Notes: a model not told the origin generated them from the sequence alone. A DNA stretch of 64,000 nucleotides from Candidatus Omnitrophota bacterium (GCA_028280285.1 JANQMA010000017.1:64993-128992); one strand, 5' to 3'; positions 4,362-22,395 are shown, counted from the first letter of the stretch. Translations and numbers: made by a program.

Positions 4362-7300
4362 ATGATTATTAAAAGCAGATTAAAAGTTATTATTAATAAA
4401 GTGCTTGTGTCTGTGGTGTTGACGGCTTTTATTATGACAAGCATTGTGCCGGTCAATTTTGCCCAGGCGCAGGTGACACCACCCATGGCCTTGCCGGCGG
4501 TAGGCACACTGGTGCCGTTATCAAGCGCGCACACCCCTGTTCATTTACTTGGCCTTACCGTGAGTCCCGATAATCCGCTTGCCTTTGATTTTTTGATCCA
4601 CTCGGGCGACAATCCGCCGGCCGAACAAACCCTCAAACAAGAAGCCGATACCCTGATCCGTTATTTTTTGGCCTCTTTAACAATCCCTGAAAAAGACATG
4701 TGGGTCAACTTATCCCCGTATGAAGAGGACCGGATCATCGAGGATAATTTTGCCCGGACTGCGATGGGCCGCGATCTGTTGGCAGAGGATTACATGTTAA
4801 AGCAGTTGACGGCATCGCTGCTTTATCCTGACGGCGATATCGGCAAAGTCTTCTGGCGGCGTGTCAGGCAAAAGGCCGAGGCGCTGGGCCTTAAAGATAT
4901 CCCAACCGAAACCTTTCATAAGATTTGGATTACGCCGGAGTCGGCGACTGTTTTTGAAGATGGACAGACGGCGTATGTGGTGGAGTCGAAGCTTAAGGTC
5001 TTGCTGGAAGAGGATTACTTAGCGTACAGCGAACAGCGGATAGCGAATAGTAGTGCTCAGCAATCAGTTGATAACTCTCTAAACGCTAAACGCCATACGC
5101 TAAACGCTGATTTAATGCGCGAGGTCATCATTCCCGAAATTACGCACGAAGTGAACTATGGCGCACACTTCGCCCGCCTGCGTCAAATCTATGGCGCGAT
5201 GGTGCTTGCCACCTGGTTTAAACAAAATTTAAAACAAACGCTGCTCGGGCAAATCTACGCCGATCAAAGCAAAGTCAAAGGCATTGATACAGTTAAAGAG
5301 GACGCCCACAAGCGTATTTACGCCCAGTACATCGATTCAATTAAAAAAGGCGCCTACAACCTGATTAAAGAAGACTATGATCCGGTGGCCCAACGGATCG
5401 TTGCCCGCAAACACTTCTCCGGCGGTTTCGCACCTGATGCCGCGGCCATTACAACCGTTAAGACGGAAAGCCTGAATGCTGCCGATGTAACCACGCAAAA
5501 ACAAATCAACGACTTTGCCTTTAATTTTGATGCGGCTGTTGCGCAAAAGGAAGTTTTTAACGTACAGACATCATTAGCCGAATCTAAAGAAGACCCCGCG
5601 GCGATGAAGGGAGTTATTGATTCAGCAGTAATGAATGTTCAGCAACAAGATGGTGACTACATCACCCAGCTAGATAAGACGGCCGATGCAGCGGGTTTGA
5701 GCCGGAAAATTCAGGATCTACGCACAATGCCGACGGCCACATTGCAGGCCTATTTTAGTATTCTTAAGTCTGACTTTATGACGGGGCGGACAAAATACAC
5801 GTATCGTCAGCATTCGAGTATCCTTAGCGAATACTGGTCCAAACTGTCTGAACATGAAAGTGAGCTGAGTAACGAAAAGTTTTATTTACAAGATCGTGTA
5901 GGCAGATTTCTTGATGTGACTAAATATCTCGAGGATCTGGATCAAAGAGGTATAAAAAAGATTAAATTAAACGGGGTTGATATTTTTCATCATCTATCCA
6001 ATCTAAGCGAGCCTGGATTGAATCAGGAGAAAATGCTCGAGGATATTTTACAAAGCTTTGCCGAACTTAAAATGATTCGTCCCCGCACTGATCCTGATCA
6101 AAATAAGATATCCAACAGCATTGAATTTAAAGAACGTGAAATTAAACACATTTTCCTCGCCAGTCCTGATGTCAACCAATTTGCTCCTCAGGAGCCGCTT
6201 GTGTTGAGTGTCTTGCTCCATCAGGATGGGGATTTTGAGATTGTTGAGGGTTTTGATATTACAAATGAGGATAGCCTGCGTATTGTTCTTGAAAAAGGAC
6301 AGAGGCCGTCTTTTCATTACCCATTGCCGTCAAGGTTAGGGGATTCTATCCGGATCAGCTTAGACCCGAATGATGAAAACAGTTTGGTCTTTGATAGGCT
6401 TGAGGCCCCAACCGAGCTTGTCCATTTTGCCTTAACGGCCGATGCAGCGAGTTTGCATCATTCCGCGCGCGGGAGAATGCGGTTGTCTCTCGATGACTTT
6501 AGTCTATATACCAGCCTATTAAACGAGAATCTGCAAAGCAAATATTTGTGGCATATTATTATTCAATTGGCTCGTCATGATCTACTAACTAAAGGGTTTT
6601 GGAGTAATGTGCTTGATTTTTCTGAGTCTTTTATTGCATATGACGGCCAGGAGTTATTTAATATGTTGAAAGAATCTTTTACCAAGAAGGGTCATCTGTA
6701 TCCTCAAGAATACCTTGCCCACGCGATCAACTCTTTAGCGACCATCAAGCGCCTTGCGCATAATCACTCTAATACATTTGAATTTAAACCGGGCGAGACA
6801 CAAAACATTGTTATGAAGGTCATCGGTAATGATAAAGTTGAGCCCTTTGTCCTGACAGCCCGGTATGACCGACAAAGGCAACAGTTTGCTTTTAAACGCC
6901 CGTCTTCTAATACAGAAGAGGTTGTGTCAATGAATCGCAAACAAATCTTTGAGATTCTGGATTTTTATAGGATTGAGTTGCGTCCTAGGTTGTCAGAGGA
7001 TGGCTGGACAGCAATGCTTGAGATGACTAATGCACACACTTATAGAGAGTTGTTTACCTATGCATTTACGCCACAGTATCCTCTTGTGTCGGTTCCATCT
7101 GGATTACTTTGGGATTATCTGACCTATCTCGGCCAAAACAAACGTAAACTTTATAAAACATTAGGGATTTTCTCTGTCAATGTTTTACTGCCGGTTGTCT
7201 TTGAGGGCCAGAAGTTAAAGGATATTAATTTTGATGGAAAAAATTTACTCTCCTTTGATGTTCGATGGCCGCAATATCAGTTTAGGCCGTTAATGGACAC

Positions 7301-10300
7301 GCTGAAAGAAAAACAACTACATGATCTCAAAAGGAATAGCAATTCAGCTGTTGATACCTACGTGTTTTCTAAAGAAGTTTTTAATAAGTTGGGAATAGTA
7401 AACAGGAGCGATGATTTTCATGCTATTTTTGACACATTGAATAGTCTGCGTTTTGTCAATCACCACCAAAGCAGTAAACAGCATGCACTTATTCCTGTTT
7501 CAGACAAACCAAAGAATGTGCATATTATCCTGAGAGAAAATGAGAACACTCAAAAAGAATTAATGGATGCCACCGTGAGTAAGCTGGCCGATGATTTGCT
7601 TAGCCTAAGTTTTAACGATAAATCTGTAACGGATCTTGTGATTATTCAGGATCAACAAATACGTTTGACAATAGATAACGAAATTACGCTTATTTTACGG
7701 CAGATTAAGGGGAACCTTCAGATTACATACATAACCAATGATCAAAGCATGCGCGATATCTTTCGCTTCACAGTTGGCTTTGATTCGGCGAGTTTGGGCA
7801 AGGAGAAGGATCTTGTTGGTGTGAAAGGGGTTGATGAAGATGCAGAAAATATTACCATCAGTCAATTTTTAGAGAATGCACCAAATACCATGGTGGCGGC
7901 CTTTAAAAACGGGTTTAAAAATAGAACTGATCATTTTGGACTTTTGAAACGTTTAAATAATAATGAAATGACAGCCAAATGGATACTTATGGCCGACAAA
8001 GTTCTGAGAGAGACTGCAGGGGCAGAAATCACCTACAGAGATTTTTCCTTAATAGACTTCTTGAAACAAAAAGGTTTTTCAAAATTGAGGCGTAATACGA
8101 TGTTTAGCCCCGATTTATTTATAACAATGGATGGAAAAAAGTATATTGGTGTATACGTCGGATCAAAAGGACTAAAAAGCACATTGGGTCAATTTTCTTT
8201 GTCTTCGGTTAAACGAAAGTGGTATAAGAAAATTTTACAAATGGATGGCAGCGGATTGGAAGGTATTATTTTATTAATGGATACTGATACGCCTGAATAT
8301 CCTGTACGTGAATTAACACCTATTAATGAGATGAAGGGTTTTTATGCCTTTCCATTATTTGAGAAGGCATTAATAGAAGCTCATCATAGGAAAGATGATT
8401 TAATAGGGTTTCCAAGCCTTTTATATGCTCATAATTTCAATTATGCTGAATCTTATCTTAATGATCTTATTTCGGATGTGCACAATTCTATTGCATTAAT
8501 TTCACGGATTAATTATTTCAGTCCACAGGAGCTGGCAGATTTCAAAAAGGATGTTGCCTATTACGAAGCTCGTGCACAGCAGTATTTAAATTATGCCAAA
8601 GAGGGTTTTAAAGAGCATCGAAAAGTTTTTGATAAATATATTAAAGAGTATAAACAAAGAAAAATTCCGGGTATTTATAAATTAGAAGAAATGATATTTA
8701 CGCGCAATATAGATATAGGTAATGTCCTTGTTACAAGTTTATTTGTATTGCAGACAGCTAAAACTTTAGAGCAGCTGGGATTTGATATTATTGAGTTTGA
8801 AACTAATTTAAATAGATCCACTAAACCGGACATTATCGTGGCAAAAAATGGCAGTAAATATATTGTAGAAGCTCATTGGCGTGAAGTGAGCCAATCTAAG
8901 TTTTTCGAAAGAAATAGTAGGGGATTTAAAAAGCCTTCTCAAAAGAGACGTTATAGACAGTATGTAGATGCGCATTCTGATTTTAAGGGCGTTATTCTGT
9001 CTTCATCATATCGATTTCAAACTCAAAAATCTAATGTAATCTTTAAGCATAAAAACGATGACAAAAGGACAAAAAGAATATTTATAGATATAAGTGATGA
9101 TCAGGATTTAATCGCTAGGAATATTGAACAAAGTTTTGATGAAGAAAGTTTAGGGTATGTAGACCATCAGCTGCTTTCTGATCAGAAGAAAGACGGGTTT
9201 TCTGATTATGCATCCATGTCTGTGATAAACGAAAACTTCTTAAAAGCAAATTTGAAGCCAGGTAAAAGATTAGAAAGTTTTAAGGATAGATTAGCTGATT
9301 ATTTAAATGAACAAATCCTCTTTGTTCAATCAGCAAAATCACGTGAAAAAATTTATGATCAAGTTGATCTGTTTTTAAGTGGTATTGATAGTTTGATTGA
9401 GGAGTATTTTTTAGACTCAATTGATGTGGATGAAATGTTAAGCGAATATGGGAAGGAATTAATGGCAGATCTGATGGCAGCAGGTGGAGTGAAAAGTGTT
9501 CAAGAGGCTGCAGTGCTCTTACAACGTCTTTTGGTTGTTGCTTTTGAGATGAATCATCGTTTTCTTGAGTTTAAAAATAATAATATTAAAGACGCTGATA
9601 CGGCGAAAAGGTATATTGATCAGTTTCTTAATCCAGGTATTTTAGAGCTCGCACGTAGGGCAGAACAGATGTATAAAAAATTAAAAGTGGCTTATGACAA
9701 TTTTTCCGTTATGGAGGAGTCTTATGTTCAAAGGAGAGGCTCAAATGAATCATTTGAACTGATGATAAAACGCTTTAAAGATGCGTTTTTTTCTGAATAT
9801 GGTTCGGAAACAATGCAGAAGGCTAAGGCAAGTTTTTCTAAAGGCGGCGTACTGCAAAAGCTTAGGGATTTTAAGTTTTCAAATGACAAACTTACTCAAG
9901 AGCAATTAGATGTACTTATAGAGTATGAGACAGTAGTGGATGAGATTGATCAAACGTTGCGTCCAATTTCTAAATATTGGGAGATTTTAATCACATTTTA
10001 TAATGACTTTGCTAACGATGTGGGAGCACAAGTAATACCGCTTAATGAAGGCCCATCCGTTTCCGTAAATTTCAACTTTCATAATCAATTTTCAGGTTTA
10101 AGTGGGGAAAGAACTAGTCTTAACGACGCGGCGGGGTTAAGTAAACAGGCGCAAGCTATGACGAAACTATCTCTTGGCCCATTGGAAAGACATTTAGAAG
10201 TTCTTGAAGCCTTTGAAGAGAAAGGTGTTTTAACATACTCTCTGGAAAATTACATGGAAGTTATCACAATGGGGGTAAACCCCAATAAAATAGGGGATTT

Positions 10301-13300
10301 GCTGGCAGCACCATTTTATCAACAAACTGATCATTATTGGGTACGAAACTTTACTCAATTTATTTATGAAAGTGTGGGATTAGAAGAACGTCAATCTGAT
10401 ATTCGATTTAATGCAAAGGAAATTTTTGAAAGGGTGAAATCAGATAGGCTTCTTGATAAAAATATGATAAGTGCTATTTTGAACGATTTGGCTGAGTTTA
10501 AATATATTAAAAATCCCAACTACGCTGATTCTAAAAAGACATTTGCTGATATTGAGTTTAATCCGGGAGAATCAAGACAAATTTTCCTTGTTAACCCGTA
10601 TTCGCTTAATATTTATGAAACTATCACTATTTCACATGATAAGAACTCAGGTAGTTTTGCAATTGCTCCACACGCTAATTATTTTTCTGATGCGGAAAAT
10701 GGGCAAGATGTCGAAAGGGCTATTCTTAAAAAACGGGGTAAAATATCTCATGAATATCGTTTATTGAGATCCCAAGAATTGGGTTATTCAATCCGTATTA
10801 GTTTAAATAAAAAAAATGACAACGCGTTGACGTTTGGAGGTGTCCACCCTAAAAATGGATTATTGATTTTTTCATCTGTGTTTGATGAAGCAAGTTTGGG
10901 GCAGGAGGATGAACCTGCCGACCCGGCGGTCTTGAAACAAAAAGATATTATGCAATTAGCGCATTTCGATCCTGATTTAGTTGCAAGGATTAAAACCAAT
11001 CTTTTTCAGGTATCAGAGGTGCCGGTGATTCGTGATAATCCCGCATTTTCCGTTCCTTTTTCTAAGGAGGATGGGTTTTTTGAGGGGATTAATGATTTAA
11101 AGGCATTGATGTACGCTGTCCAGAAGATGAAGGATTCTCTTGAGAACATAAGCCCGAAGTTAAATGCCGAAGGTGTGGGGCAATTATCCCCAACGATAGC
11201 ATCCATACAAAACGATTTCGATTTTCTTGTTGATGTGCAAAACAGATTGCGCTTGCATGAAGGGGTTACAGATACCATGTTTGTTTATAAAGAAGGGTTG
11301 CAACGGTTAATGGAGATTGTGAAATTTGACAATAGAGGCGATTTGTACGTTGTATACGCGGGTTTAGTCATGACGTATTTGCAGTATAAATATTCTAATA
11401 AAATAATTTACAATGATTTCGATCCAACAGATTCGTTCAAACTTAAAAGATTTTTTGATGTATATTCTATGGCTGACCGGTTTGATTTTCCTGCAACAGT
11501 GGTGCAAACCATTAACGGTATCGGCTCCATTGCAGATAAAATAAAAGTGGTACGCGCACTCAACGCGTGGGCCACCATGCGAACCCTGGCAAAAGGCGAA
11601 CAGACGCCGGTGTATTTTGAAACAGAAACCGGTGAACAAATTAAAACCGTTTATCTCAAACCGATTTCTTTTGATGCTTCAGAGCGCGACAAGCTTTTAA
11701 TGATGGAAGTTAAACGTGATCAATCGAACGTTTATTCTGTTCGCCAAAAGGGAAAAGAAAACTGGCAAGTCATCGAGCAGGATGCCCCGCGGACGTTTGG
11801 CTTAATGGGCGTGCATGTGACTTTTATGATTCAAAAGAAAGTGCTGCATATCGAAAATAATAGCCGGCATATTTTTATAGCTAGTATTTCAGAATCTATT
11901 AATGGAAAGACCTATGATGATGCGATGTTGTCTGAATATGCGGCACGAAAAATAATTTTTAGTGCAAAAGATTTTCTTATTATGAATGAGATTCTTAACC
12001 AGGATTATCCTGATTTGGCCAAACGTCACCGGTCTATGCTGTTTGCGCTTGTGCACGGCACGCCGTTAACTGATATTTGGCTATCTCGTCCGAAAAGATT
12101 TGTTGAACCTAACGCTAATTTCATTGTCGAAGAAGCAAGAGTGCGTGCTGCAGAAAACAGACCGTTTAATATTAGTCCTATAGGCGCAAAAATATATCTT
12201 GGTGTTGATGATAATGAGAAGAAAAAGATCAATCGCAGTTTGGTAGCGGATGTTTTAAATACGTGGGGAACGCTTATTCGCATTCATACTCAAGCAGCGT
12301 ACAGCATTCCTGTGTTTATGGAAGAAGGCGAAACACGCCAACTGTATGTTGTTAACAACGAGACCAAAGAATTTATTAAATTACAGATCAATCAGATGCC
12401 TGGTTATTTTGAAGTTATAGATATAAGCAATGGTAAAGAAGGATATGGTTATTGGGTGTTTCCTGATCATGATACCGAGAACGGAGACAATAAGATTTAT
12501 TTTGCCAATGGAAAAGACTATATCATATTGGATGAGGATCAATTTGATCAGTTATCGGTGATTAATGAAACCAATGCTGATTTGACAGCCTTTGCGGTCG
12601 ATCAAGCAAGTTTGGGCAAGGTAGTTAGAGCTGAAGAGGGTCGTTATGTGATTCAGAAAAATGGGGTTAATGTTTATTCAGATGTTACTGAAAGAGACAT
12701 GATTGACGTTTTTTTTAACAATACACCCGATTTGGAGCGACCAGTAGCTGAGGTGGCATTATATCGAAATAGTCGGGAGGATTATTATATTTCTTGGTGG
12801 GGCGGTTGGGCTATTAATGAAACATCTGTGAATGATCAGTCACAATGGTTTGATTGGAATACAGATAAATCACTTGCTGTTCGAAAAAATAAAATTTTAT
12901 ACAAATATGAATTGGAATCTAAAATAAATAAACTTATTGAACAGCGTTCAGATAGCCGAGAACCTCTCTATATTTTAGATTGGGGGTTTGGGGATGGAAC
13001 TGCTATTGATGAATTAGCACAAAAATTTGAACATATCGAAAACTTGTATTTTATTGGCTATGGAATGACACATGATAGTAAATGGAGTACTTTTGGAGAA
13101 ACTTTTAAACGTAAAAATATAATTATTTTTGATCATATTTGGAAATTAGAAAAACATTTAAAGAAAATTTTGAAAGGTAATAAGCTGGCTCTTGTTTATA
13201 GTCATTTTGGTTTAGCTCACTTATTAAGGGATTATCCAGATGATGCCAGGGAACAAATAAAAACTTTAATGAAGTATATGAAAAATGGAGCATCGCTTAT

Positions 13301-16300
13301 AACCAATTACTATTGGAATGATAGCCTTCCTAGTAAATTTGCAAAAGGATTTAGAAAGAAAACTATTAGCCCAAATACATTCAGTGCGTGGGCGATTGTG
13401 GAGATATTTAATGAAGACGCAGCAAGTTTAGGGCAGGAGGATGAATCTACCGACGCGGCGGGATTAGATATGCTGGCTTATATTATGTCACGGCGTGTGT
13501 TTGATCCGGATATTGCTAAAGAACTTGAAATATTGCATGCCCAATGGGCTAATATCGTTGATCAATTTATAAATACAAGTAAATATAATAAAAAATCTCA
13601 AAGACTGGTAGGGCCGACTGGTTGGACAATGTTCAAACGTTATGGTTTTAATAAAAATAAGGAACTGTATTTGGAATATTTTCAACGTCTGGGGGATGAG
13701 GGAGTCATTGATAGTTTTTCAATAAAGGTTACTGATGGGAGGTTAAAATACTTTGCTCCTGGATTGCATCACCATTCAGCTAGTTTTTTTGGTCAAGAAT
13801 ATGCAACAGATAGTGCGCCTCCGCGTTCTGGAAGTTTTGTTGTGCGCGTTTATGAACCTTTTTCGAAGGAACTAGAGGAAGAGATTAGAAAAATTTTTGG
13901 TGAATTTTTGGCGCAATATGGCAGGACTACTGGATTTGAAAATTTTGTTAAAGATTTTGATGAAGGGGTGATGCCAACAGTTGGTTCACAAATCAAGAAA
14001 AATCCCGGTGAGGCAGAAAATATTAAAAAGGCCTACAATGATGTACGAGATATACTTGTTCGAAAAAACAAAGACTACTGGCAAAAACTTCCGCGTCTTA
14101 TGGCAAGATTACAGCAAATACTTATAAGCGGTATTTATGTAAAAGAAGTAATTCATAAAGATGAAAAAAGGTTTAAGGATGCCCCGCCCGCCCGGATTTA
14201 TGCGTATGGAGATATGGGGTTTGAAGATCCGGTTGCATTTATTCAACATTTAAATAAAACAACACCACTGGTAGCGAAACTACTCTTAGGGGAAACATAT
14301 CTTGATCCAACATCGGGTATTGATATTAATGATCCTAGGATAGCAGAGGTTGTTGAAGAGCAGCCGTACTCTGAACAAGGCAAGCCTATCGATGAGGCGA
14401 ATTTGGGCAAGACGGGCGAATCTACCGATGCAGAACCAGAAAGCTTTGATGAAGAGATAAAGGAAGATAAAGATCAGGCGGCGATAACGGCAGTGGATGT
14501 TCATGGGACGCGTGTGCCAGGCGGTGGTATTATTTGGACAAGGATGCCGGCTCAATATTTTAAAGTTCTTCGGTTGCGTAGAGGAGGGAAAGCATACCTG
14601 CGCGAGTCTTCTATTAAGGGTTTAGTTTTGGAGAACGCTTTAGAACGTTATCGGCACAGTGATACTCCCTTACAAAAGGTTAATAATCATTTAGGAATAG
14701 ATTTGGTTGATGAAATTGTGCAATTAGATCAGTTACGTCAACGTGAGAATGAGCCAAACCGTGTGATTACTGTTTTAGATTGGGGTGGCGGCAGTATGCA
14801 GGCCATTAAAGATATTTTAAACGAATTAAAGGCTCAAAATATTAAAAATGTTCGCTTGATTGGTTCTGGGCATAGTACGTACCTGGAGTGGAAGGATATT
14901 CCGGAGGGGATTGAGGTTATTTGGGATGTGGCACAGAAGCTTCATTTATATATTGCTGAGGGCAGTATTGATATTATTTACAGTCATTATGGGATGTATC
15001 ATTTAGATGAACAATTACCGCAGTATTTGATGTATTTAGAGAAACTTCTTAGTCCTCGAGCAAAAATTTTGATATATCCTTTGGATGGAGATTTATCTGA
15101 GCAGTTACCAGGGTGGAAGTTAGAGATAAAAAGAAAGCATAAGAATATTTCTCGGTTGGATGTTAAGACACATAAGAAAAAATTTTGGTCTGGATTGATT
15201 TCTCGTATGATTTGGCCTGCTTCACAAAGAGTATCAGTCCGTAATTTCGCACCATTTAATTATAGTTATGAATTTACTCCGCCTTCTCGAATATCAATTA
15301 AATCGAAAGGCTCTGATCCGCTTGAGGGCCTTATGATTTCATCTTGGAGTGATACCCCAAAGGAGCGCATCATTTTGCCTAAAAGAAGTATGTCAAGTTT
15401 GCGAAGACGGGTGGGTGGACGTGATTTTGCGAGCCTGGAGCGGAAGGATGAGGCTCAAATCGACGCGGCGGGGTTGGATTTTAATGGAAAATTCTCGATG
15501 GCCAGTTATGGAAATAATGAAACTGATGTGATGAGATTAAATAGAATTACGAAAGGTAAAAGGTTGATTGAGAGAGTGCAACCGCAGCACTTTCGTTTGA
15601 ATAGTGCCGGTGTTAATATTTATTCGAGTTTACAAGATGAGGAAATAATAGACATCCTTTCGATATTAGATAGTGAAAAGATTGCTCGGATAAGACTTAA
15701 TAATCGAAATACTACGACAGACTACCACATTAGCTGGGAAAAACCATGGCGTATGAATCGTACACCACTTGATGCGGTTGATATGTTTGCGGGTCTTAAA
15801 TTTTATGAATTGGAGTCGAGAGTAGAAACTATTATTAATAATCGCCAGGATGACGCTGAACCGATTTATATTTTTGACTGGGGTTTTGGAGCAGGGACCG
15901 CGTTAAAAGAGTTGTCTGAGAAATTTGATAATATTCCTAACATATTTTTTATCGGATTTGGTGACGCTTATTATGAAGATTGGCATACACTGCCGAGTAA
16001 TGTCATTATTATTTACGATCAGGCTTGGAGGCTAGAGGAGCATTTATCAAAAATTCTTAAGGGGCATAAAATTGATCTGGCTTTTAGTCATTGGGCGTTA
16101 TCTTCACACTTTTTAGGTGATTATTTTGGCCCAAAAAGAGTATATTTTTTAAGACTTATGGATTTTCTAAAACCTGGTGCTTCCTTTGTTATTGATGCTC
16201 TGAATGATTCCGGTGCAGAGTTGGGCATTAGACGGGATTTTAATGTTCAAAAAATACCAGTGAGCAACTATTATTTCGGCGATATATTTGAAGTAAAAAA

Positions 16301-19300
16301 TGAAGATTCTAGGAGTTTGGGTAAGGAGGTTGCGGATCAAACCGATGCGGCGGGATTGGGTGAAAGTGTTCAGAATTCAGTGTTCGGTGGTCAGCCGGAA
16401 GAAACTGATGCGGCGAATTTCAATGAGTATTTATTTTTATCACCTGAATTAACGTTGGACTATTTTGTTGCCTTACTATCAAACCTTGGAGATAAGACTG
16501 TTTTATCACTTACAGTATATCTTTTAGCTCCGTATATTGGTGCAGCACAATTGACAGATGAGTTTAAGTTAACAAATCCCTTAGCTAATACTTTATACGA
16601 CGTTGTAGTAGCTCAATTAAAAGAAATGTTCGGTAAGGACGAATTATACCCTATGGATATGAGAGGCTATTTGGATCAATTGCCATTGTTAAGCAACGAT
16701 ATTGGCAAGCATGTTTTGGAATCTCTAGGTAGTGTTAGAGCGATGGTCCATGAGTCTGAGCTTAAACATCAACCACCAATATCAATCGGTGTTGGCCAGA
16801 GCAAAAAGCTTATTTTGGCGGAGCGTTATTATACTGATCAGACTGATATGACGACTATGCATTTGTTGGATGTAACACGACTTTCCTCGAATCAATTTAA
16901 ATTGAAGGCAGAGGGGATAGATAGGCAAATTGATTTGAAGCAAGAGAGTTTAATGGGTTTAGAAATGAATTATTTGGATGAGCAAGGGCAGCCTTTTACA
17001 ATGTCAGTTAAGATGCTGTTTTCGAATAATGGTTTTCAAATTTATTATACCAATGATAACTTGGATTTTAATACTATGATCTTTGCGCTTGATTATGAAT
17101 TGATTAATTTTGTTAATGAAGTTGGTGAGCCAAAGCCTTTTCAAGATAATGCGAGTTTGGATAAGGAGAATGAGTTCCAAACCGACGCGGCGGGGTTGGG
17201 GTCTAGTGATCAGTGGTCCCGCGGTCAGTCGGAGAAATTTGATGCAGCGCGTTTAGATAAACAGCAGCTTAAAAAAATATCAAATAAAGCTCTTGGGAAT
17301 ATGTTTTGGAATGATTTTTATCGGGCATTGCTACTTTTGTTTGATAAATCGATAACATTTTATTCGCAGACAGATAAAGGGATTAAACCTTATGTATGGC
17401 ATAAACTAGTTGAACATGATCCAAGTGTTAATTTATCACTATTTGCCAAGATAGCAGTTCCAGGTTTGGATAACGTACGAGTTATAGACTCGAAATATGA
17501 TTATGTTATGAGTATATTAGACAGTTTTAATCCTTCTGCTGAATCTTTTACAAAATCAATGGAGAGCATCAAAGAGATGCTAGAAGATGATAATCAGCAG
17601 TTGGGGCTGGCTGAAAGTAAGCCGATTGCGCATAGGCATTTAATTCGTAGAGCGCTTTATTATTTTACACGTGAACATGATGAAGCCCGAGAGAATGAAA
17701 AGAAGTTGGTAGAGGTATTTGATTATGGAGCCAAAATTATCAATGAAATCAAACGGCGTAATAATATTGCCCAAAAAACATTAAAATCTCATGGAGTAAT
17801 TGTTGATGCCTCTGGTGCGGCAAAGCTGAATAATGGTGATCGATGGGCAGCCCGCCCTGCTGCTTTGCAGAAAAAACCGGAAACTCGCGTGGTCAGTGAT
17901 CAAAAGAAAGGCGGTGACGCGCTGGATTTGAGTAGAGAGAAATCTTTACAAATGTATCCACGAAAAACCTTATCCAATTTTGATTCGATTATTCATGTGT
18001 TATTTGAAGGATACACCCAAAAATTTCAATCTGGGCAAAATCCAATATTATGGAAAACACATGCAAGAAATTTATTGGAAAACGTAAGTTATTATGTGAA
18101 TGAGCATTTTATTTATCCTGAAGTCGCGATGGATACGTTTGTTAATAAAAATAAAGAATTTATCGAAAAGCTAATTGATGAAGGGAATGAACGCTATCTA
18201 TATTCTGCATTTTTAATTTATAAAGGTTTAGCCACAATGGCGGCTAAAGATTTACGTAACATTGCAGATAGTGATAGGTTGTTTGCTCAGCCACGAAAGA
18301 ATCAGCCGGTTCGAAGCTTTAGAAATCAAGCGCATAAGTTGGCTCCTTTGCGCAGGGAATTAGAGCGATTACAAGGAAGATATGTGGAGTTGCGAGAATG
18401 GGCTGAGTTCAATTTATTTTTCAATGATAAATTTCAGAAAGAATCTCAAATTGTTTATGCTTTTGAACATCATACGCAGAATTTAATTAATGTCGTTGGT
18501 GAGGTTGGTTATGATGGAGCGCTGACCTATGGAGAGGTTGATCAGTATGCTATTCAATTGCAAGGCGATGCTTATATTTTAGAAGGTGTTGTGCGTGTAT
18601 TACATGATATTAAGCTTAAGGTAGAAAGAGACTCTGCGAGTTTGGGTGAGGAGGTTGAGTTCCAAGCCGACGCGGCGGGGCTGGATTTAAAAAATTTAGA
18701 AGAAATTTCTGTTGATGAGATGAAAAAACTATTTAACGCTCTATTTTCAGAAGTTTTTTATGCTTTGTTTGAGGGTACTCTCTGGTCTCATGAATACGAA
18801 AATTATAATGAGATTGTTGAGTATGATTGGGAGAGACACAATGATTTGCATAATGTAAAGAATATTAAAGTTAATATCAATAGTGCTATGACTCTATTTG
18901 CTTTGAGGCCCAACTCGAATAAAGAAATAGACATGGCTCTCAGATCAATTGATAGATTTAAAAATGAACTACGTTTGATTGATTACACGAACCGAGAAAG
19001 TGAGTTAGATAGTTTGTTGGATCAAATGGAGGGATACAAAGATTTTGGTTTAAGTGAAGATGAACCAATTGAGTATGCATTGCTTAAACCACGATTTTTT
19101 TATCAAGCATTGCGTGCAGATCCTAATGCAGATGAGAATAGAATTAAAATGTTTACCAAAGTGAACAATTTAAAGTCTGTTATTAATGAATTTAAACGTA
19201 GACTAGAAATTGAAAAGAAAAATTTAGTTGTTACAGGGTCTGAATCTACCGATGCAGCGGGGTTGAAAAGTATTGATAAGCAAGAGTTGCGTAATATGAC

Positions 19301-20180
19301 CGATGGAGGTGTTGGTAAAACATTACGCGATCATTTTAATGAGTTTTCAAATTTGTTTGAAGCGCAAGTGTGGTCGCCTGGTTTGTATACATTGGCTGTT
19401 AGAGATTTTTCATGGACAGAAATAGTAGAGCATCATAGAGCAGATATGCTGAAAAGTATAGATGGTATTATGAATGGATCACTTAAAAATTTTGAAAATA
19501 TGTCGCAGTTAAAGAATTTTTTATGGTTGGTTTATAATTTTATGACGCAGATCAATATTTATCGCAATTTAGCTTCTTTCGATGAACTATTTGAAGAATT
19601 TTTAGAAAAGATGAAGCAATATAGCGACCGGGGAAAAGAATTTGAGAATCCTACAACATATGACCTTCGAGAAGTTAGATTGATTTATTATGTTTTAAAA
19701 GAAGATGTTAATGCAGAAGAAAACAGAAAAAAATTATCTGATACTTTAGAAAATATTAAAATAATTGTTGAAGAGATTGAACATAGAATTGAGCTTAAAT
19801 ATGAATCATTGAAAAAAAATGGTATGGAAGCTGATAAAGAACTAGATAAAATTTTTGAATCTGTAGAAGATGATTTGGGAGCTTTGACGAATATTAAGAG
19901 CTTCGAGCTTCGAGCTCCGAGCTCCGAAGTAGGTGGTATCGACCTTGACTCCAAACACCTTGACCTTCAAATCAAACGTGATGGGCGTGGTGTGGCGCTG
20001 CCGGTTCACATGCAAGATATTCCGAATATTCAGATCGATGGGCTTTATCCGGTGATTATCAATATCACGCCGGTGACCACCGTGCCGCTTATTTTCAGCC
20101 AAATCCTTGGGGAGCAAGGGGATACAGATCACGCCTCAGTAACAGATTATCCGCAGTTGTCGTATGCCATTAAAGAGTAG
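4362..20180 (+). CDS. Giant secreted/surface protein (5272 aa), modular, with repeated ASLG...DAAGL linker motif and three SAM-methyltransferase-like Rossmann modules
   Basis: Single uninterrupted ORF 15.8 kb; N-terminal signal peptide (hydrophobic core + AQAQV); 12 in-frame linker repeats; repeated modules with (I/V)LDWG(F/G)G(D/A)GT motif I-like sequence. Confidence 0.85.
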   Translation: MIIKSRLKVIINKVLVSVVLTAFIMTSIVPVNFAQAQVTPPMALPAVGTLVPLSSAHTPVHLLGLTVSPDNPLAFDFLIHSGDNPPAEQTLKQEADTLIRYFLASLTIPEKDMWVNLSPYEEDRIIEDNFARTAMGRDLLAEDYMLKQLTASLLYPDGDIGKVFWRRVRQKAEALGLKDIPTETFHKIWITPESATVFEDGQTAYVVESKLKVLLEEDYLAYSEQRIANSSAQQSVDNSLNAKRHTLNADLMREVIIPEITHEVNYGAHFARLRQIYGAMVLATWFKQNLKQTLLGQIYADQSKVKGIDTVKEDAHKRIYAQYIDSIKKGAYNLIKEDYDPVAQRIVARKHFSGGFAPDAAAITTVKTESLNAADVTTQKQINDFAFNFDAAVAQKEVFNVQTSLAESKEDPAAMKGVIDSAVMNVQQQDGDYITQLDKTADAAGLSRKIQDLRTMPTATLQAYFSILKSDFMTGRTKYTYRQHSSILSEYWSKLSEHESELSNEKFYLQDRVGRFLDVTKYLEDLDQRGIKKIKLNGVDIFHHLSNLSEPGLNQEKMLEDILQSFAELKMIRPRTDPDQNKISNSIEFKEREIKHIFLASPDVNQFAPQEPLVLSVLLHQDGDFEIVEGFDITNEDSLRIVLEKGQRPSFHYPLPSRLGDSIRISLDPNDENSLVFDRLEAPTELVHFALTADAASLHHSARGRMRLSLDDFSLYTSLLNENLQSKYLWHIIIQLARHDLLTKGFWSNVLDFSESFIAYDGQELFNMLKESFTKKGHLYPQEYLAHAINSLATIKRLAHNHSNTFEFKPGETQNIVMKVIGNDKVEPFVLTARYDRQRQQFAFKRPSSNTEEVVSMNRKQIFEILDFYRIELRPRLSEDGWTAMLEMTNAHTYRELFTYAFTPQYPLVSVPSGLLWDYLTYLGQNKRKLYKTLGIFSVNVLLPVVFEGQKLKDINFDGKNLLSFDVRWPQYQFRPLMDTLKEKQLHDLKRNSNSAVDTYVFSKEVFNKLGIVNRSDDFHAIFDTLNSLRFVNHHQSSKQHALIPVSDKPKNVHIILRENENTQKELMDATVSKLADDLLSLSFNDKSVTDLVIIQDQQIRLTIDNEITLILRQIKGNLQITYITNDQSMRDIFRFTVGFDSASLGKEKDLVGVKGVDEDAENITISQFLENAPNTMVAAFKNGFKNRTDHFGLLKRLNNNEMTAKWILMADKVLRETAGAEITYRDFSLIDFLKQKGFSKLRRNTMFSPDLFITMDGKKYIGVYVGSKGLKSTLGQFSLSSVKRKWYKKILQMDGSGLEGIILLMDTDTPEYPVRELTPINEMKGFYAFPLFEKALIEAHHRKDDLIGFPSLLYAHNFNYAESYLNDLISDVHNSIALISRINYFSPQELADFKKDVAYYEARAQQYLNYAKEGFKEHRKVFDKYIKEYKQRKIPGIYKLEEMIFTRNIDIGNVLVTSLFVLQTAKTLEQLGFDIIEFETNLNRSTKPDIIVAKNGSKYIVEAHWREVSQSKFFERNSRGFKKPSQKRRYRQYVDAHSDFKGVILSSSYRFQTQKSNVIFKHKNDDKRTKRIFIDISDDQDLIARNIEQSFDEESLGYVDHQLLSDQKKDGFSDYASMSVINENFLKANLKPGKRLESFKDRLADYLNEQILFVQSAKSREKIYDQVDLFLSGIDSLIEEYFLDSIDVDEMLSEYGKELMADLMAAGGVKSVQEAAVLLQRLLVVAFEMNHRFLEFKNNNIKDADTAKRYIDQFLNPGILELARRAEQMYKKLKVAYDNFSVMEESYVQRRGSNESFELMIKRFKDAFFSEYGSETMQKAKASFSKGGVLQKLRDFKFSNDKLTQEQLDVLIEYETVVDEIDQTLRPISKYWEILITFYNDFANDVGAQVIPLNEGPSVSVNFNFHNQFSGLSGERTSLNDAAGLSKQAQAMTKLSLGPLERHLEVLEAFEEKGVLTYSLENYMEVITMGVNPNKIGDLLAAPFYQQTDHYWVRNFTQFIYESVGLEERQSDIRFNAKEIFERVKSDRLLDKNMISAILNDLAEFKYIKNPNYADSKKTFADIEFNPGESRQIFLVNPYSLNIYETITISHDKNSGSFAIAPHANYFSDAENGQDVERAILKKRGKISHEYRLLRSQELGYSIRISLNKKNDNALTFGGVHPKNGLLIFSSVFDEASLGQEDEPADPAVLKQKDIMQLAHFDPDLVARIKTNLFQVSEVPVIRDNPAFSVPFSKEDGFFEGINDLKALMYAVQKMKDSLENISPKLNAEGVGQLSPTIASIQNDFDFLVDVQNRLRLHEGVTDTMFVYKEGLQRLMEIVKFDNRGDLYVVYAGLVMTYLQYKYSNKIIYNDFDPTDSFKLKRFFDVYSMADRFDFPATVVQTINGIGSIADKIKVVRALNAWATMRTLAKGEQTPVYFETETGEQIKTVYLKPISFDASERDKLLMMEVKRDQSNVYSVRQKGKENWQVIEQDAPRTFGLMGVHVTFMIQKKVLHIENNSRHIFIASISESINGKTYDDAMLSEYAARKIIFSAKDFLIMNEILNQDYPDLAKRHRSMLFALVHGTPLTDIWLSRPKRFVEPNANFIVEEARVRAAENRPFNISPIGAKIYLGVDDNEKKKINRSLVADVLNTWGTLIRIHTQAAYSIPVFMEEGETRQLYVVNNETKEFIKLQINQMPGYFEVIDISNGKEGYGYWVFPDHDTENGDNKIYFANGKDYIILDEDQFDQLSVINETNADLTAFAVDQASLGKVVRAEEGRYVIQKNGVNVYSDVTERDMIDVFFNNTPDLERPVAEVALYRNSREDYYISWWGGWAINETSVNDQSQWFDWNTDKSLAVRKNKILYKYELESKINKLIEQRSDSREPLYILDWGFGDGTAIDELAQKFEHIENLYFIGYGMTHDSKWSTFGETFKRKNIIIFDHIWKLEKHLKKILKGNKLALVYSHFGLAHLLRDYPDDAREQIKTLMKYMKNGASLITNYYWNDSLPSKFAKGFRKKTISPNTFSAWAIVEIFNEDAASLGQEDESTDAAGLDMLAYIMSRRVFDPDIAKELEILHAQWANIVDQFINTSKYNKKSQRLVGPTGWTMFKRYGFNKNKELYLEYFQRLGDEGVIDSFSIKVTDGRLKYFAPGLHHHSASFFGQEYATDSAPPRSGSFVVRVYEPFSKELEEEIRKIFGEFLAQYGRTTGFENFVKDFDEGVMPTVGSQIKKNPGEAENIKKAYNDVRDILVRKNKDYWQKLPRLMARLQQILISGIYVKEVIHKDEKRFKDAPPARIYAYGDMGFEDPVAFIQHLNKTTPLVAKLLLGETYLDPTSGIDINDPRIAEVVEEQPYSEQGKPIDEANLGKTGESTDAEPESFDEEIKEDKDQAAITAVDVHGTRVPGGGIIWTRMPAQYFKVLRLRRGGKAYLRESSIKGLVLENALERYRHSDTPLQKVNNHLGIDLVDEIVQLDQLRQRENEPNRVITVLDWGGGSMQAIKDILNELKAQNIKNVRLIGSGHSTYLEWKDIPEGIEVIWDVAQKLHLYIAEGSIDIIYSHYGMYHLDEQLPQYLMYLEKLLSPRAKILIYPLDGDLSEQLPGWKLEIKRKHKNISRLDVKTHKKKFWSGLISRMIWPASQRVSVRNFAPFNYSYEFTPPSRISIKSKGSDPLEGLMISSWSDTPKERIILPKRSMSSLRRRVGGRDFASLERKDEAQIDAAGLDFNGKFSMASYGNNETDVMRLNRITKGKRLIERVQPQHFRLNSAGVNIYSSLQDEEIIDILSILDSEKIARIRLNNRNTTTDYHISWEKPWRMNRTPLDAVDMFAGLKFYELESRVETIINNRQDDAEPIYIFDWGFGAGTALKELSEKFDNIPNIFFIGFGDAYYEDWHTLPSNVIIIYDQAWRLEEHLSKILKGHKIDLAFSHWALSSHFLGDYFGPKRVYFLRLMDFLKPGASFVIDALNDSGAELGIRRDFNVQKIPVSNYYFGDIFEVKNEDSRSLGKEVADQTDAAGLGESVQNSVFGGQPEETDAANFNEYLFLSPELTLDYFVALLSNLGDKTVLSLTVYLLAPYIGAAQLTDEFKLTNPLANTLYDVVVAQLKEMFGKDELYPMDMRGYLDQLPLLSNDIGKHVLESLGSVRAMVHESELKHQPPISIGVGQSKKLILAERYYTDQTDMTTMHLLDVTRLSSNQFKLKAEGIDRQIDLKQESLMGLEMNYLDEQGQPFTMSVKMLFSNNGFQIYYTNDNLDFNTMIFALDYELINFVNEVGEPKPFQDNASLDKENEFQTDAAGLGSSDQWSRGQSEKFDAARLDKQQLKKISNKALGNMFWNDFYRALLLLFDKSITFYSQTDKGIKPYVWHKLVEHDPSVNLSLFAKIAVPGLDNVRVIDSKYDYVMSILDSFNPSAESFTKSMESIKEMLEDDNQQLGLAESKPIAHRHLIRRALYYFTREHDEARENEKKLVEVFDYGAKIINEIKRRNNIAQKTLKSHGVIVDASGAAKLNNGDRWAARPAALQKKPETRVVSDQKKGGDALDLSREKSLQMYPRKTLSNFDSIIHVLFEGYTQKFQSGQNPILWKTHARNLLENVSYYVNEHFIYPEVAMDTFVNKNKEFIEKLIDEGNERYLYSAFLIYKGLATMAAKDLRNIADSDRLFAQPRKNQPVRSFRNQAHKLAPLRRELERLQGRYVELREWAEFNLFFNDKFQKESQIVYAFEHHTQNLINVVGEVGYDGALTYGEVDQYAIQLQGDAYILEGVVRVLHDIKLKVERDSASLGEEVEFQADAAGLDLKNLEEISVDEMKKLFNALFSEVFYALFEGTLWSHEYENYNEIVEYDWERHNDLHNVKNIKVNINSAMTLFALRPNSNKEIDMALRSIDRFKNELRLIDYTNRESELDSLLDQMEGYKDFGLSEDEPIEYALLKPRFFYQALRADPNADENRIKMFTKVNNLKSVINEFKRRLEIEKKNLVVTGSESTDAAGLKSIDKQELRNMTDGGVGKTLRDHFNEFSNLFEAQVWSPGLYTLAVRDFSWTEIVEHHRADMLKSIDGIMNGSLKNFENMSQLKNFLWLVYNFMTQINIYRNLASFDELFEEFLEKMKQYSDRGKEFENPTTYDLREVRLIYYVLKEDVNAEENRKKLSDTLENIKIIVEEIEHRIELKYESLKKNGMEADKELDKIFESVEDDLGALTNIKSFELRAPSSEVGGIDLDSKHLDLQIKRDGRGVALPVHMQDIPNIQIDGLYPVIINITPVTTVPLIFSQILGEQGDTDHASVTDYPQLSYAIKE

Positions 20181-20330
20181 CGGCGAAGCAGTGCCTCTGC
20201 CCTAAATAGTACCAAGTTTTGGGTCGACACATTGGTCGGCTTGTACCTATCGGTGTTGTGAAAAATACTTGCCAAATTTTACACTACATTATATTATTAT
20301 ATAAGATATGTAGTGTAAGGAGTGTGGACT

Positions 20331-20636
20331 ATGATTATTTTACAAGAGATTTTAGCTGATAGCAAAAAGCATTATCAAGAAGTCCGAAAGAAAATTCTCA
20401 AAAATCTTTCTTCGCTTCCCCAGGGGAGTGTCAAAAAACGTAAGATTTCTAAGCGTATCTATTATTATCTCCAACAGAGGGTCGGTTCTAAAATTATTCA
20501 TAAATATTTAGGTAAAGAAGAGCCGGAGGAGTTAATTAAAGAGTTAAAATTACGTAAGTCTTTGAAAGCTGAGCTTAAAAAAGTCGATGAGGCTTTAAAG
20601 GTTATACAAAAAGTCCAAGGCAAAAAGTATGGATAA
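20331..20636 (+). CDS. Small basic protein (cassette 1 gene A), possible antitoxin/regulator partner
   Basis: SD AAGGAG 9 nt upstream of ATG 20331 (ORF-track GTG 20322 less likely); 8-nt overlap with the following gene; lysine-rich C-terminus. Confidence 0.4.
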   Translation: MIILQEILADSKKHYQEVRKKILKNLSSLPQGSVKKRKISKRIYYYLQQRVGSKIIHKYLGKEEPEELIKELKLRKSLKAELKKVDEALKVIQKVQGKKYG

Positions 20637-21309
20637 TGTGATTGCCAAAATTCTGAAAGTTTTTGAAAATAATAATCTATTTGAAGAAGGCGTAGAGCTG
20701 ATTGGAAGCTGGTGTTTTTACTTGTATCAAAAACATTTAAAGGCTCCGAGTTTTCCGCTGCGAACACAGGACATTGATTTTCTAATTCCCAATCCATTTA
20801 AGGGCAAAGAGCATAAAGAGTTTATTCAGCAGTTGGAGGACTTGGGTTTTCAGAGTGAATTTAATCGGAGTGGATCGCTTTACCTTTGGAATGTGGATTT
20901 AAAAATAGAATTTATCACGCCGGCAAAAGGCAGAGGCACGGCCGATGCGGTAAAATTTAAAAAGCTGGGACTAGCGGCCGTACCTTTGAGATTTGTTAAT
21001 CTGTTGCTCAATGATCCTATTTATGTTACGGAGAAGGGAGTAAAAACAGCTCTTCCAAATCCTGCTAATTATTGCCTTCATAAGTTGGTGATTGCTAGCC
21101 GTAGAAAGACGAAGGACAAGCAAATGAAAGATTTACAGCAAGCCATATCTACCTACAGTATTGCTGATAAGAGGTATTTAAAAAAACAATTTAACAACTT
21201 TCCCGAAAAATGGAAAGCTACCGCTGTCAGTATGCTTAAAAAGAATCGAGATCAGCTGCCTCTTTTTGATGCGGAGATAGAGCAAATTTTAATTACACTA
21301 CAAAATTAA
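20629..21309 (+). CDS. Putative minimal-nucleotidyltransferase-fold protein (AbiEii/GSU2403-like) (cassette 1 gene B)
   Basis: GSWCFYLYQ...RTQDIDFLI matches the G[SG]x9-13 DhD nucleotidyltransferase signature; translationally coupled to upstream small gene. Confidence 0.35.
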   Translation: MDNVIAKILKVFENNNLFEEGVELIGSWCFYLYQKHLKAPSFPLRTQDIDFLIPNPFKGKEHKEFIQQLEDLGFQSEFNRSGSLYLWNVDLKIEFITPAKGRGTADAVKFKKLGLAAVPLRFVNLLLNDPIYVTEKGVKTALPNPANYCLHKLVIASRRKTKDKQMKDLQQAISTYSIADKRYLKKQFNNFPEKWKATAVSMLKKNRDQLPLFDAEIEQILITLQN

Positions 21310-21358
21310 TAATTTTATATAATGTAGTGTAAAATTTTTTTATAAGTTTGTTGACAGC

Positions 21359-21472
21359 GCGCCGGTGACCACCGTCCCGCTTATTTTTAGCCAAATTCTT
21401 GAAGATCAACAGGATACAGATCACGCCTCGGTGACGGATTATCCGCAGTTGTCGTATGCGATTAAAGAGTGA
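21359..21472 (+). pseudogene. Displaced duplicate of the 3' end of the giant gene (last ~37 codons, no start codon)
   Basis: ~90% nt identity to 20068..20180; encodes APVTTVPLIFSQILEDQQDTDHASVTDYPQLSYAIKE* versus native PVTTVPLIFSQILGEQGDTDHASVTDYPQLSYAIKE*; 8 synonymous vs 3 nonsynonymous differences. Confidence 0.7.
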
Positions 21473-21579
21473 TTGGTGATTTAGAAAGTATATGATATTA
21501 TAAAATTCTAGTGGCTATTCCTCCCCAAAGTATGCTGTAACTTCAAACTATTCGATTTCCCTTACAATATTAATTTTTG

Positions 21580-21608
21580 ACAAGTATACGTCAATGGCGT
21601 ATACTTAC
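21580..21608 (+). promoter_or_regulatory. Sigma-70-type promoter for the HigBA-like pair with overlapping GTATAC palindromes
   Basis: TTGACA - 17 nt - TATACT; spacer contains GTATACGTCAATGGCGTATAC; followed by ACTTACTAAGTAAG palindrome. Confidence 0.4.
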
Positions 21609-21619
21609 TAAGTAAGGGG

Positions 21620-21943
21620 TTGTGCATGGAGATCATTGAAACGCCAATCTTTACAAAAATGATTGGGGATGTTCTTTCAGATGAAGAATATAGAGAATTA
21701 CAATGGGCATTGTTGCTTAATCCGAAGGTAGGTGTTGTTATCCCTGGAGGTGCGGGATTAAGAAAACTACGTTGGCATTTTTCTGGAAGTGGAAAAAGAG
21801 GGGGATTGCGTGTTATTTATTATTTCTATTCAGAAGACGAAGCAATTTATTTGTTGTTTTCGTATAAAAAATCACAACAAAATGCTTTAACGCGGGCACA
21901 AATAAAAATTCTAAGAGAGTATGTTAAGGGAGGTGTGCTGTGA
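21620..21943 (+). CDS. HigB-like toxin (RelE/ParE superfamily, phage-related COG4679-type)
   Basis: WHFSGSGKRGGLRVIYYFYSEDEAIYLLFSYKKSQQ matches the GxxGGxRVIYY..IYLL..Y.K signature; 4-nt ATGA overlap with downstream HTH gene. Confidence 0.6.
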   Translation: MCMEIIETPIFTKMIGDVLSDEEYRELQWALLLNPKVGVVIPGGAGLRKLRWHFSGSGKRGGLRVIYYFYSEDEAIYLLFSYKKSQQNALTRAQIKILREYVKGGVL

Positions 21944-22230
21944 AAGACAAAGATTTTAACAATTTGTTGACGAGTATTGACCAGGCACGAAAGATACATA
22001 AGGGAAAATTAAAACCAAGCCGTGTTTTCATATTTGATCCAGTGATGGTTAAAAACATAAGGAAAAAATTCAAAGTATCTCAATCTGAATTTGCTTATAT
22101 GATTGGTGTGAGTGTGGCGACTTTGCAAAACTGGGAGCAGGGCCGCCGAAAACCTGATGGGCCGGCATTGGCATTGTTGAAGGTTGCAGAAATGAATCCT
22201 GAAATTGTGATGAAAGCTTTGTATGCGTAA
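21940..22230 (+). CDS. HigA-like antitoxin, XRE-family helix-turn-helix protein
   Basis: SQSEFAYMIGVSVATLQNWEQGRRKP is a canonical XRE HTH; toxin-first gene order typical of HigBA. Confidence 0.65.
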   Translation: MKDKDFNNLLTSIDQARKIHKGKLKPSRVFIFDPVMVKNIRKKFKVSQSEFAYMIGVSVATLQNWEQGRRKPDGPALALLKVAEMNPEIVMKALYA

Positions 22231-22270
22231 GGGGATTGAGGGGCTCAATCCTTGAGGAGAAAAAGGAGGT

Positions 22271-22327
22271 ATGAAAAAAGCGGGTTTGCCTGAATACCCC
22301 CAATTATCATACGCAGTAAAAGATTAG
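22271..22327 (+). other. 18-codon mini-ORF (MKKAGLPEYPQLSYAVKD) = third, more decayed copy of the giant gene's C-terminal tail, preceded by a strong SD
   Basis: AAAAGGAGGT 1 nt upstream of ATG; last 11 residues EYPQLSYAVKD vs native DYPQLSYAIKE. Confidence 0.4.
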
Positions 22328-22395
22328 CCGCACCTCTTGTTGAATACAAAAGAATATGTTATACTCTATTAGAACATAAAAGAGGAGATAATATT

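Follow-up and report, generated by a model that had tools for sequence, protein, structure and literature searches.

Three anciently diverged methyltransferase-fold cassettes in a predicted exported giant protein of Candidatus Omnitrophota

Domains of the methyltransferase or S-adenosylmethionine (SAM)-dependent methylase kind are recurrent in the giant proteins of Omnitrophota, of the 'Archaeovorin' type (West-Roberts et al. 2023, bioRxiv 10.1101/2023.11.21.568195), and the Pfam family PF08241 was counted in 137 long Omnitrophota proteins in a 2026 preprint (10.64898/2026.06.07.730766). Archaeovorins are very large, with many transmembrane helices and with glycosyltransferase, glycosyl hydrolase, peptidase, NUDIX and SecA-like domains (bioRxiv 10.1101/2023.11.21.568195). 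Here we describe three copies (modules A, B and C) of a domain with a predicted methyltransferase fold, all within one giant protein encoded on a 64,000-nucleotide (nt) stretch of DNA from Candidatus Omnitrophota bacterium (GCA_028280285.1, JANQMA010000017.1:64993-128992). This whole stretch is called the window, and nucleotide positions are counted from its first letter. Like the Omnitrophota giants, the protein is very long and multidomain, with methyltransferase-fold cassettes among many unannotated regions; unlike the Archaeovorins, it has merely 5,272 amino acids (aa), and its cassettes are too diverged for Pfam. Lacking a membrane-helix array as well as glycosyl and peptidase domains, it stands outside the 'Archaeovorin' description. 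Its predicted signal peptide, unaccompanied by internal membrane helices, puts it into the 'SP-only' class, a minority of 8.6% in the 2026 catalogue (10.64898/2026.06.07.730766).

The nearest solved relatives of the cassettes by sequence are the plant and Plasmodium phosphoethanolamine N-methyltransferases (PMTs; 5wp5, 4r6w, 3uj6) and the plantazolicin N-methyltransferase BamL (4kvz, 5dly). The cassettes belong to a family that we refer to as DWG, which has the same fold as enzymes of the Methyltransf_11/25 type, its motif I (ePiviLDWGcGeG) being in register with VLDIGCGQG and VLELGAGIG of the solved proteins. Strand 4 of the family, with its hydrophobic-Asp pattern, and the following 'IYS..xLxH' align with DVIYSRDTILHI of PMT, and the His of GLxH aligns with a His in this segment that we take to be catalytic in the Plasmodium falciparum enzyme. 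Several features set the family apart from the solved methyltransferases: a Trp (in 95% of members) for the aliphatic residue after the motif I Asp, a near-invariant Gly in strand 2, an acidic residue that is displaced by one position and conserved in only 41%, a Trp behind strand 2 that hardly varies, and a dedicated N-terminal subdomain of ~90 aa. The domain is moreover repeated as a cassette in exported giant proteins, and the copies in the window remain below the Pfam cut-offs.

Secreted methyltransferase effectors such as NleE/OspZ, RomA and Rv1988 act in target cells. The giant protein resembles them by description, in that it has a predicted export signal on a SAM-dependent enzyme fold and comes from a lineage proposed to be predatory or parasitic; its own delivery, target and activity are hypothetical. 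It has also been proposed that ultrasmall archaeal symbionts pass methyltransferases to their hosts (PMC11001535).

Three copies and their predicted fold

A sequence-only reading of the window had proposed three diverged copies of a Rossmann module with a methyltransferase-like motif I inside the giant protein, and this was borne out. In a self-BLAST of the protein, done in 300-aa windows, A (aa 2851-3035) and C (aa 3817-3999) align over 187 aa with 41% identity (E=2e-40). The identity falls to 29% between B and C (163 aa, E=3e-13) and to 27% between A and B (115 aa, E=4e-8). The ~100 aa upstream of A match those upstream of C (E=1e-7). A hidden Markov model (HMM) built from 150 relatives from outside the window finds exactly three domains, at aa 2848-3015 (141.7 bits), 3445-3606 (137.7 bits) and 3815-3976 (146.7 bits), and no fourth anywhere in the giant protein. 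The E-values between the copies are far beyond chance, and the three copies are therefore confirmed as real. The peptides quoted in that reading all lie in frame 1 of the open reading frame (ORF), at the positions given there: EPLYILDWGFGDG of module A begins at nt 12960 and contains DWGFGDG at aa 2873-2879 (nt 12978-12998); VITVLDWGGGSM of module B contains DWGGGSM at aa 3473-3479 (nt 14778-14798); and EPIYIFDWGFGAG of module C contains DWGFGAG at aa 3839-3845 (nt 15876-15896). The gene, its modules and the linkers that border them are as follows.

4362..20180, + strand: giant host gene, one ORF (product 5,272 aa) with signal peptide, conserved ~400-aa head, ~14 linker-separated cassettes and conserved C-terminal tail
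4362..4469, + strand: predicted Sec-type signal peptide, aa 1-36, with a K/R-rich start, a hydrophobic core and AQA followed by QV; read from sequence and hydropathy
12600..12620, + strand: linker before A, DQASLGK
12621..13418, + strand: module A, aa 2754-3019, N-terminal beta/alpha subdomain and predicted methyltransferase-fold core; borders from the linkers, fold from AlphaFold2 and Foldseek
12903..13406, + strand: core A, aa 2848-3015, motif I D2873-W-G-F-G-D-G2879, strand 2 ending in IGYG-M2902, then W2908, D2924 and YSHFGLAH (aa 2946-2953)
13416..13466, + strand: linker after A, DAASLGQEDESTDAAGL
14391..14438, + strand: linker before B, DEANLGKTGESTDAEP
14436..15431, + strand: module B, aa 3359-3690, N-terminal subdomain, predicted methyltransferase-fold core and ~88-aa tail predicted to be disordered (aa 3603-3690, nt 15168-15431)
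14694..15179, + strand: core B, aa 3445-3606, motif I D3473-W-G-G-G-S-M3479, strand 2 ending in IGSG-H3504, then W3510, D3522 and IDIIYSHYGMYH (aa 3536-3547)
15423..15476, + strand: linker between B and C, DFASLERKDEAQIDAAGL
15477..16313, + strand: module C, aa 3706-3984, N-terminal subdomain and predicted methyltransferase-fold core; from self-BLAST and the family HMM
15804..16289, + strand: core C, aa 3815-3976, motif I D3839-W-G-F-G-A-G3845, strand 2 ending in IGFG-D3868, then W3874, D3886 and IDLAFSHWALSSH (aa 3904-3916)
16305..16358, + strand: linker after C, DSRSLGKEVADQTDAAGL

Each cassette consists of a ~90-aa N-terminal beta/alpha subdomain followed by a predicted class I (seven-strand, Rossmann-like) SAM-dependent methyltransferase fold of ~170 aa. 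The modules are thus larger than first claimed: the proposed start at 12780 lies inside the N-terminal subdomain of A, which begins at nt 12621, and the proposed end at 16360 is that of the linker after C and not of a module. The segments YYISWWGGW (nt 12783-12809) and YHISWEKPW (nt 15723-15749) do precede the cores of A and C as described, but the upstream subdomain is not confined to these two copies. It is conserved before the core in all three (VPGGGIIWTRM ... SDTPLQKV in B) and across the family, standalone proteins included, with the motifs L-x-x-G-A-x-L-x-T-x-L and W-x4-T-(S/P)-L. The KL..HL.KILKG pattern, which had been read as part of a methyltransferase layout, is merely the helix after strand 3 and no hallmark of these enzymes.

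The fold was predicted with AlphaFold2 for A and B, and C is tied to it by its 41% identity to A. Module A, from a 32-sequence alignment, has a predicted TM-score (pTM) of 0.80 and a core predicted local distance difference test (pLDDT) of 85-97; module B, from 21 sequences, has a core pLDDT above 90, falling below 50 over its last ~88 residues. In Foldseek searches of the PDB, model A gives 330 matches at E<=1e-3, of which the best 50 are all class I SAM-dependent methyltransferases (best E=7e-7, probability 1.00, target TM-score 0.67-0.69), and model B matches methyltransferases and a few close SAM-utilising relatives (best E 4.6e-6). Both models show the order strand 1, GxGxG loop, helix, strand 2, and later strand 4 and a C-terminal antiparallel hairpin, the predicted elements being beta1 (LYILDW), loop, alphaA, beta2 (LYFIGYG), beta4 (ALVYS) and the C-terminal hairpin. 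Structure prediction thus returned a methyltransferase-like Rossmann fold, and not the non-Rossmann fold or the absence of methyltransferase likeness named beforehand as the refuting outcome.

Sequence profiles lead to the same enzymes. A profile of the three copies matches BamL and PMT2 in the PDB at E~1e-4 with motif I in register, and one of 40 family members matches PMT2 at 1.9e-11, BamL at 1.2e-9 and Plasmodium-type PMTs at ~1e-8. Methyltransf_25 is matched by 15 of these 40 members at E<=1e-3; seven of the eight Pfam families that they match are methyltransferase models, and the eighth, matched by one member, is CMAS, a family of SAM-dependent cyclopropane synthases. Relatives including standalone proteins (P0051, P0054 and P0063) pass the Pfam gathering scores for Methyltransf_25/11. 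Together, models and profiles support a class I SAM-dependent methyltransferase fold for the modules. The family that the domain comes from is poorly annotated, and its three copies here are real and diverged long ago.

That the likeness to methyltransferases arose by chance, or reflects a generic NAD/FAD-type Rossmann domain with a GxGxG loop, is barely credible: such loops are common and no single copy reaches a curated Pfam threshold, but with inter-copy E-values down to 2e-40, family-profile matches to solved methyltransferases at 1e-9 to 1e-11, no dehydrogenase in the top 50 structural matches of model A or B, and a predicted C-terminal antiparallel hairpin typical of class I methyltransferases, chance resemblance is effectively refuted.

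The DWG family and the history of the copies

An exhaustive profile search over 1.84 billion representatives, clustered at 50%, recovered 292 representatives of the family at E<=1e-3 and 92 at E<=1e-10. They are either large proteins, the longest of 7,051 aa, or small standalone ones (~180-260 aa), and carry the signature (I/V)LDWG(C/A)GxG ... NV(R)LIG(F/Y)(S/G)(D/N) ... EW ... I-x-D ... (I/V)DLIYSHxGLxH. Among the 150 of the 292 that were listed, 144 have one copy, five have two, and only the protein described here has three. The named giant relatives are all from Candidatus Omnitrophota, one of them (P0005) being annotated as a 'methyltransferase domain-containing protein'. By sequence similarity, the cassettes are assigned to a distinct family without an established name, found both as shuffled cassettes in Omnitrophota giant proteins and as standalone proteins. 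A word-indexed homologue search returned no homologue for module A, the 40-sequence alignment gave only P0057, and pattern scans of GTDB genomes found no relative.

A subgroup of the standalone proteins (P0051 and P0161-P0164; loci L003 and L004), with MPVFGKGR at the start and a strongly basic N-terminus, belongs to DPANN archaea (Ca. Iainarchaeum, Diapherotrites). These members carry the VVLDWGCG / YGFSKDS / DLIYS signature, and one is annotated as a 'class I SAM-dependent methyltransferase'. The family therefore crosses the divide between bacteria and archaea among ultrasmall organisms. The gene neighbourhoods of relatives that we examined gave no clue to an acceptor substrate: P0051 adjoins a T2SSE-type ATPase and an exosortase-like gene, and P0162 adjoins DUF2339. 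P0057, a standalone protein with a signal peptide, lies on a 6.3-kb metagenome contig (locus L002) that also carries a DnaB_C/AAA_25 helicase-like gene and many small ORFs lacking annotation. This locus resembles a mobile element or a piece of phage; phage genomes searched by tblastn with P0057 gave no match.

The three copies do not share one history. A and C are each other's best matches, at 154-155 bits over the whole module (E~1e-44), whereas B matches them at merely 44-59 bits and has its best matches in P0014 (41% identity, 139 bits) and in P0015, a standalone protein of 238 aa (42%, 125 bits). At the DNA level no repeat was found between the modules; the repeats are confined to the linkers. 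An old duplication within the lineage of this protein is thus indicated by sequence comparison for A and C, with B recruited separately from a different branch of the family. A recent triplication is ruled out by the same observations, namely the missing DNA repeat and the greater closeness of B to modules of other proteins.

Cofactor site and possible function

In the family columns, taken over 150 members, motif I has Asp in 90% (and Glu in 8%), then Trp in 95%, Gly in 99%, Gly in 95% and the third Gly in 79%. Further on, the strand-2 Gly is found in 88%, the Trp after strand 2 in 93% and the Asp after strand 3 in 62%, followed after strand 4 by Asp in 77%, Ser in 94%, Gly in 88% and His in 75%. 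The Trp of DWG had been described as replacing a small residue, but the aligned solved methyltransferases have Ile or Leu there (VLDIGCG, VLELGAG). A, B and C retain almost all of the family-conserved residues. The near-invariant core residues (D-W-G-x-G, the strand-2 G, the following W, the S and G of YSHxG and the H of GLxH) are kept in A and B, C deviates with Ala for the G of SHxG, and B carries Tyr for the Trp of the N-terminal W-x4-T-(S/P)-L motif. Since the copies score 138-147 bits against an HMM that excludes them, they appear to be typical members of the family and not decayed ones.

Closer to the presumed cofactor site the copies differ. Motif I, with its acidic residue and G-x-G-x-G, is complete in A (DWGFGDG) and C (DWGFGAG), and in B (DWGGGSM) Met stands in for the third Gly. 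At the adenine-contact position after strand 3, all three copies have Asp (D2924, D3522, D3886). The residue just after strand 2, where a ribose-binding acid is expected, is Asp3868 in C, Met2902 in A and His3504 in B; this position was assigned from predicted secondary structure, and contacts of residues with SAM were deduced from sequence position. As read from these alignments, C has the full canonical cofactor-site signature; in A and B, one or two positions that also vary within the family are changed. With changes at ribose or loop positions (Met2902 in A; His3504 and Met3479 in B), these two may bind SAM more weakly or differently. Such residues are compatible both with activity and with the earlier suggestion that the modules may be degenerate binding domains.

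We consider it likely that these are three paralogous methyltransferase-fold cassettes which, within one exported multidomain protein, bind SAM and methylate an acceptor. In this model, SAM would bind as in other class I enzymes, at the Gly-rich DWGxGxG loop that follows strand 1 and at the Asp that comes after strand 3. The N-terminal subdomain would line the acceptor pocket together with SHxGLxH, the segment that follows strand 4. The closest solved proteins by sequence are amine N-methyltransferases, which does not fix the substrate.

Several observations weigh against this model. The predicted Sec-type signal peptide, with no further membrane helix apart from a weak C-terminal stretch, would place the cassettes where SAM is not expected, and signal or lipoprotein-like peptides stand at the start of several standalone relatives too. 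No copy alone reaches a Pfam cut-off (best 18.4 bits against 27), and NCBIfam gives nothing. The third motif I Gly is lost in B, and the strand-2-end position, Met in A and His in B, is Asp in only 41% of the family, with Asn in 28%, Lys in 10% and His in 8%. From the signal peptide and the lack of internal membrane helices it follows that the cassettes would act outside the cytoplasm, for example after delivery into a cell that contains SAM, or independently of catalysis.

The last of these possibilities corresponds to a pseudoenzyme or scaffold, in which the methyltransferase fold is kept and catalysis is lost, the cassettes being ligand-binding, adhesive or structural units of an exported surface protein. 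A location away from SAM, the missing strand-2 acid in A and B together with its low conservation family-wide, the altered motif I of B, and the other cassettes of the giant protein, in which Pfam recognises no enzyme signature, would all suit this explanation. However, the D-W-G-x-G loop is conserved at 90-99% over 150 diverged members, and the strand-3 Asp and SHxGLxH are kept, a pattern usually seen where a cofactor and active site are maintained. The fit of the three copies to the family is also no worse than that of ordinary members, curated methyltransferase models are passed by relatives, and C has the full signature. We regard loss of catalysis as rather unlikely, although it is the most serious competitor of the enzymatic model.

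A bolder version of the enzymatic model may be speculated upon, to which we give only a small chance. According to this speculation, the protein is an exported modular 'cargo train' with a conserved head, a conserved C-terminal tail for sorting and exchangeable cassettes that are cleaved free at the DxASLG...TDAAGL borders (DxAM in relatives), and the DWG cassettes are effectors on or inside a prey or host cell that contains SAM; their presence in DPANN archaea would then reflect gene exchange between ultrasmall episymbionts and predators. The borders themselves are well marked. Their consensus, (D/E)xASLG(K/Q)E..(T)DAAGL, recurs in the giant protein, and in its strict form D[AS]A[SG]L it occurs 12 times against 0.026 expected from 1,000 shuffles and marks cassette borders. 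The linkers are also seen as 38-nt DNA repeats at 13432, 15442 and 16324. Other giant relatives have a related DxAM motif 90-130 aa upstream of DWG (in about 19 of 64 instances, and in none of the shuffled control).

A SAM enzyme other than a methyltransferase, carrying out aminopropyl or aminocarboxypropyl transfer in the manner of spermidine synthases or of the nocardicin type, is very improbable. Foldseek matches of model B do include spermidine synthases (6i1n, 8iyi) and a 3-amino-3-carboxypropyl transferase (8zhv, 8zhu) at E~1e-4, but these are a small minority of the matches of B and are absent from the top 50 of A, and the sequence-profile matches are all methyltransferases.

The host protein, its surroundings and implications

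The giant protein begins with MIIKSRLKVIINKVLVSVVLTAFIMTSIVPVNFAQA followed by QV, by sequence reading and hydropathy scan a textbook Sec-type signal peptide, and the same layout is present in 48 relatives. The hydropathy scan finds no internal membrane helix, the only extra feature being a weak hydrophobic stretch at aa 5227-5249. In Pfam the 5,272-aa protein yields nothing beyond weak methyltransferase hints, and in particular no glycosyltransferase, hydrolase, peptidase or NUDIX domain. Relatives among family-bearing proteins exist only for the first ~400 aa, for the three modules and for the last ~80 aa, and none of these parts has a match in NCBIfam. The remaining features of the protein are given below.

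4470..5561, + strand: conserved N-terminal head, aa ~37-400, motif LPxPGxMVxLSP..P..LKGI.V..nPfxFdFI
19932..20177, + strand: conserved C-terminal tail, aa 5191-5272, motif GGIDL(n)p..l.l.i...g.g..f..dp......GF.PVIINI.Pv.nLp.lLGL
5685, 6441, 7782, 10125, 10884, 17145-17200, 18630-18685 and 19251: other linker sites in the window (linker series from aa 442 to aa 4964)

The head, which has no Pfam match either, is common to 33-36 of 150 family-bearing proteins. The tail (GGIDL...PVIINIxP...LLG), which matches no database family, is found near the C-terminus in 32 of 150 relatives; it may serve in sorting or anchoring. In several small standalone DWG relatives a GGI(D/S/N)F motif comes after the signal peptide as well.

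Further cassettes are repeated within the protein: nt 5685-6455 (aa 442-698) matches nt 10125-10898 (aa 1922-2179), and additional repeats lie at nt 17229-17855, 18939-19292 and 19239-19835 (aa 4290-4498, 4860-4977 and 4960-5158). The BLAST E-values of these non-methyltransferase repeats are 2.5e-10 to 4e-10; they have no Pfam match and no relative among the methyltransferase-bearing proteins. An 89-aa antisense ORF inside the giant ORF (14286-14555), the only opposite-strand coding candidate in the region, is probably spurious.

The neighbours of the giant gene are bacterial housekeeping genes, for ketopantoate hydroxymethyltransferase, a lipid A acyltransferase, a histidyl-tRNA-synthetase-like protein, pyruvate phosphate dikinase and a sigma-70 factor, and the locus was also found on a metagenome contig. 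Just downstream, at ~20331-22909 and 24581-24958, there is a run of small toxin-antitoxin-like genes, with the pairs DUF6788 and NTP_transf_8, RelE-like and MqsA/HTH_3, and DUF6290 and ParE-like, and with a 23S_rRNA_IVP/bAvd-like four-helix protein in the same stretch (coordinates from the L001 gene calls, where L001 coordinate + 10628 = window coordinate). G+C is 0.34-0.40 through most of the giant gene (window 8001-22000), lower than the 0.41-0.48 of most flanking DNA; GC skew is positive throughout the window, and nearly all genes are on the + strand. A second long ORF (45693-49970; 1,425 aa) has three DUF4215 repeats as its sole Pfam match.

Methyltransferase domains in Omnitrophota giant proteins have already been published, and the cassettes described here are a diverged addition to them, not surprising enough to alter the understanding of the phylum. 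They do give names and borders to the sole recognisable enzyme-like parts of an otherwise unannotated protein of 5,272 aa. That a SAM-dependent fold is found behind a predicted signal peptide raises the question of where such domains meet their cofactor. The linkers may serve as processing sites or form a structural border strand, and their motif offers candidates for the processing sites reported to be missing from Omnitrophota giant proteins (bioRxiv 10.1101/2023.11.21.568195). Finally, as the 292 representatives of the family, in Omnitrophota and DPANN archaea, mostly lie below the thresholds of curated models, domain catalogues of Omnitrophota giant proteins will undercount methyltransferase cassettes.

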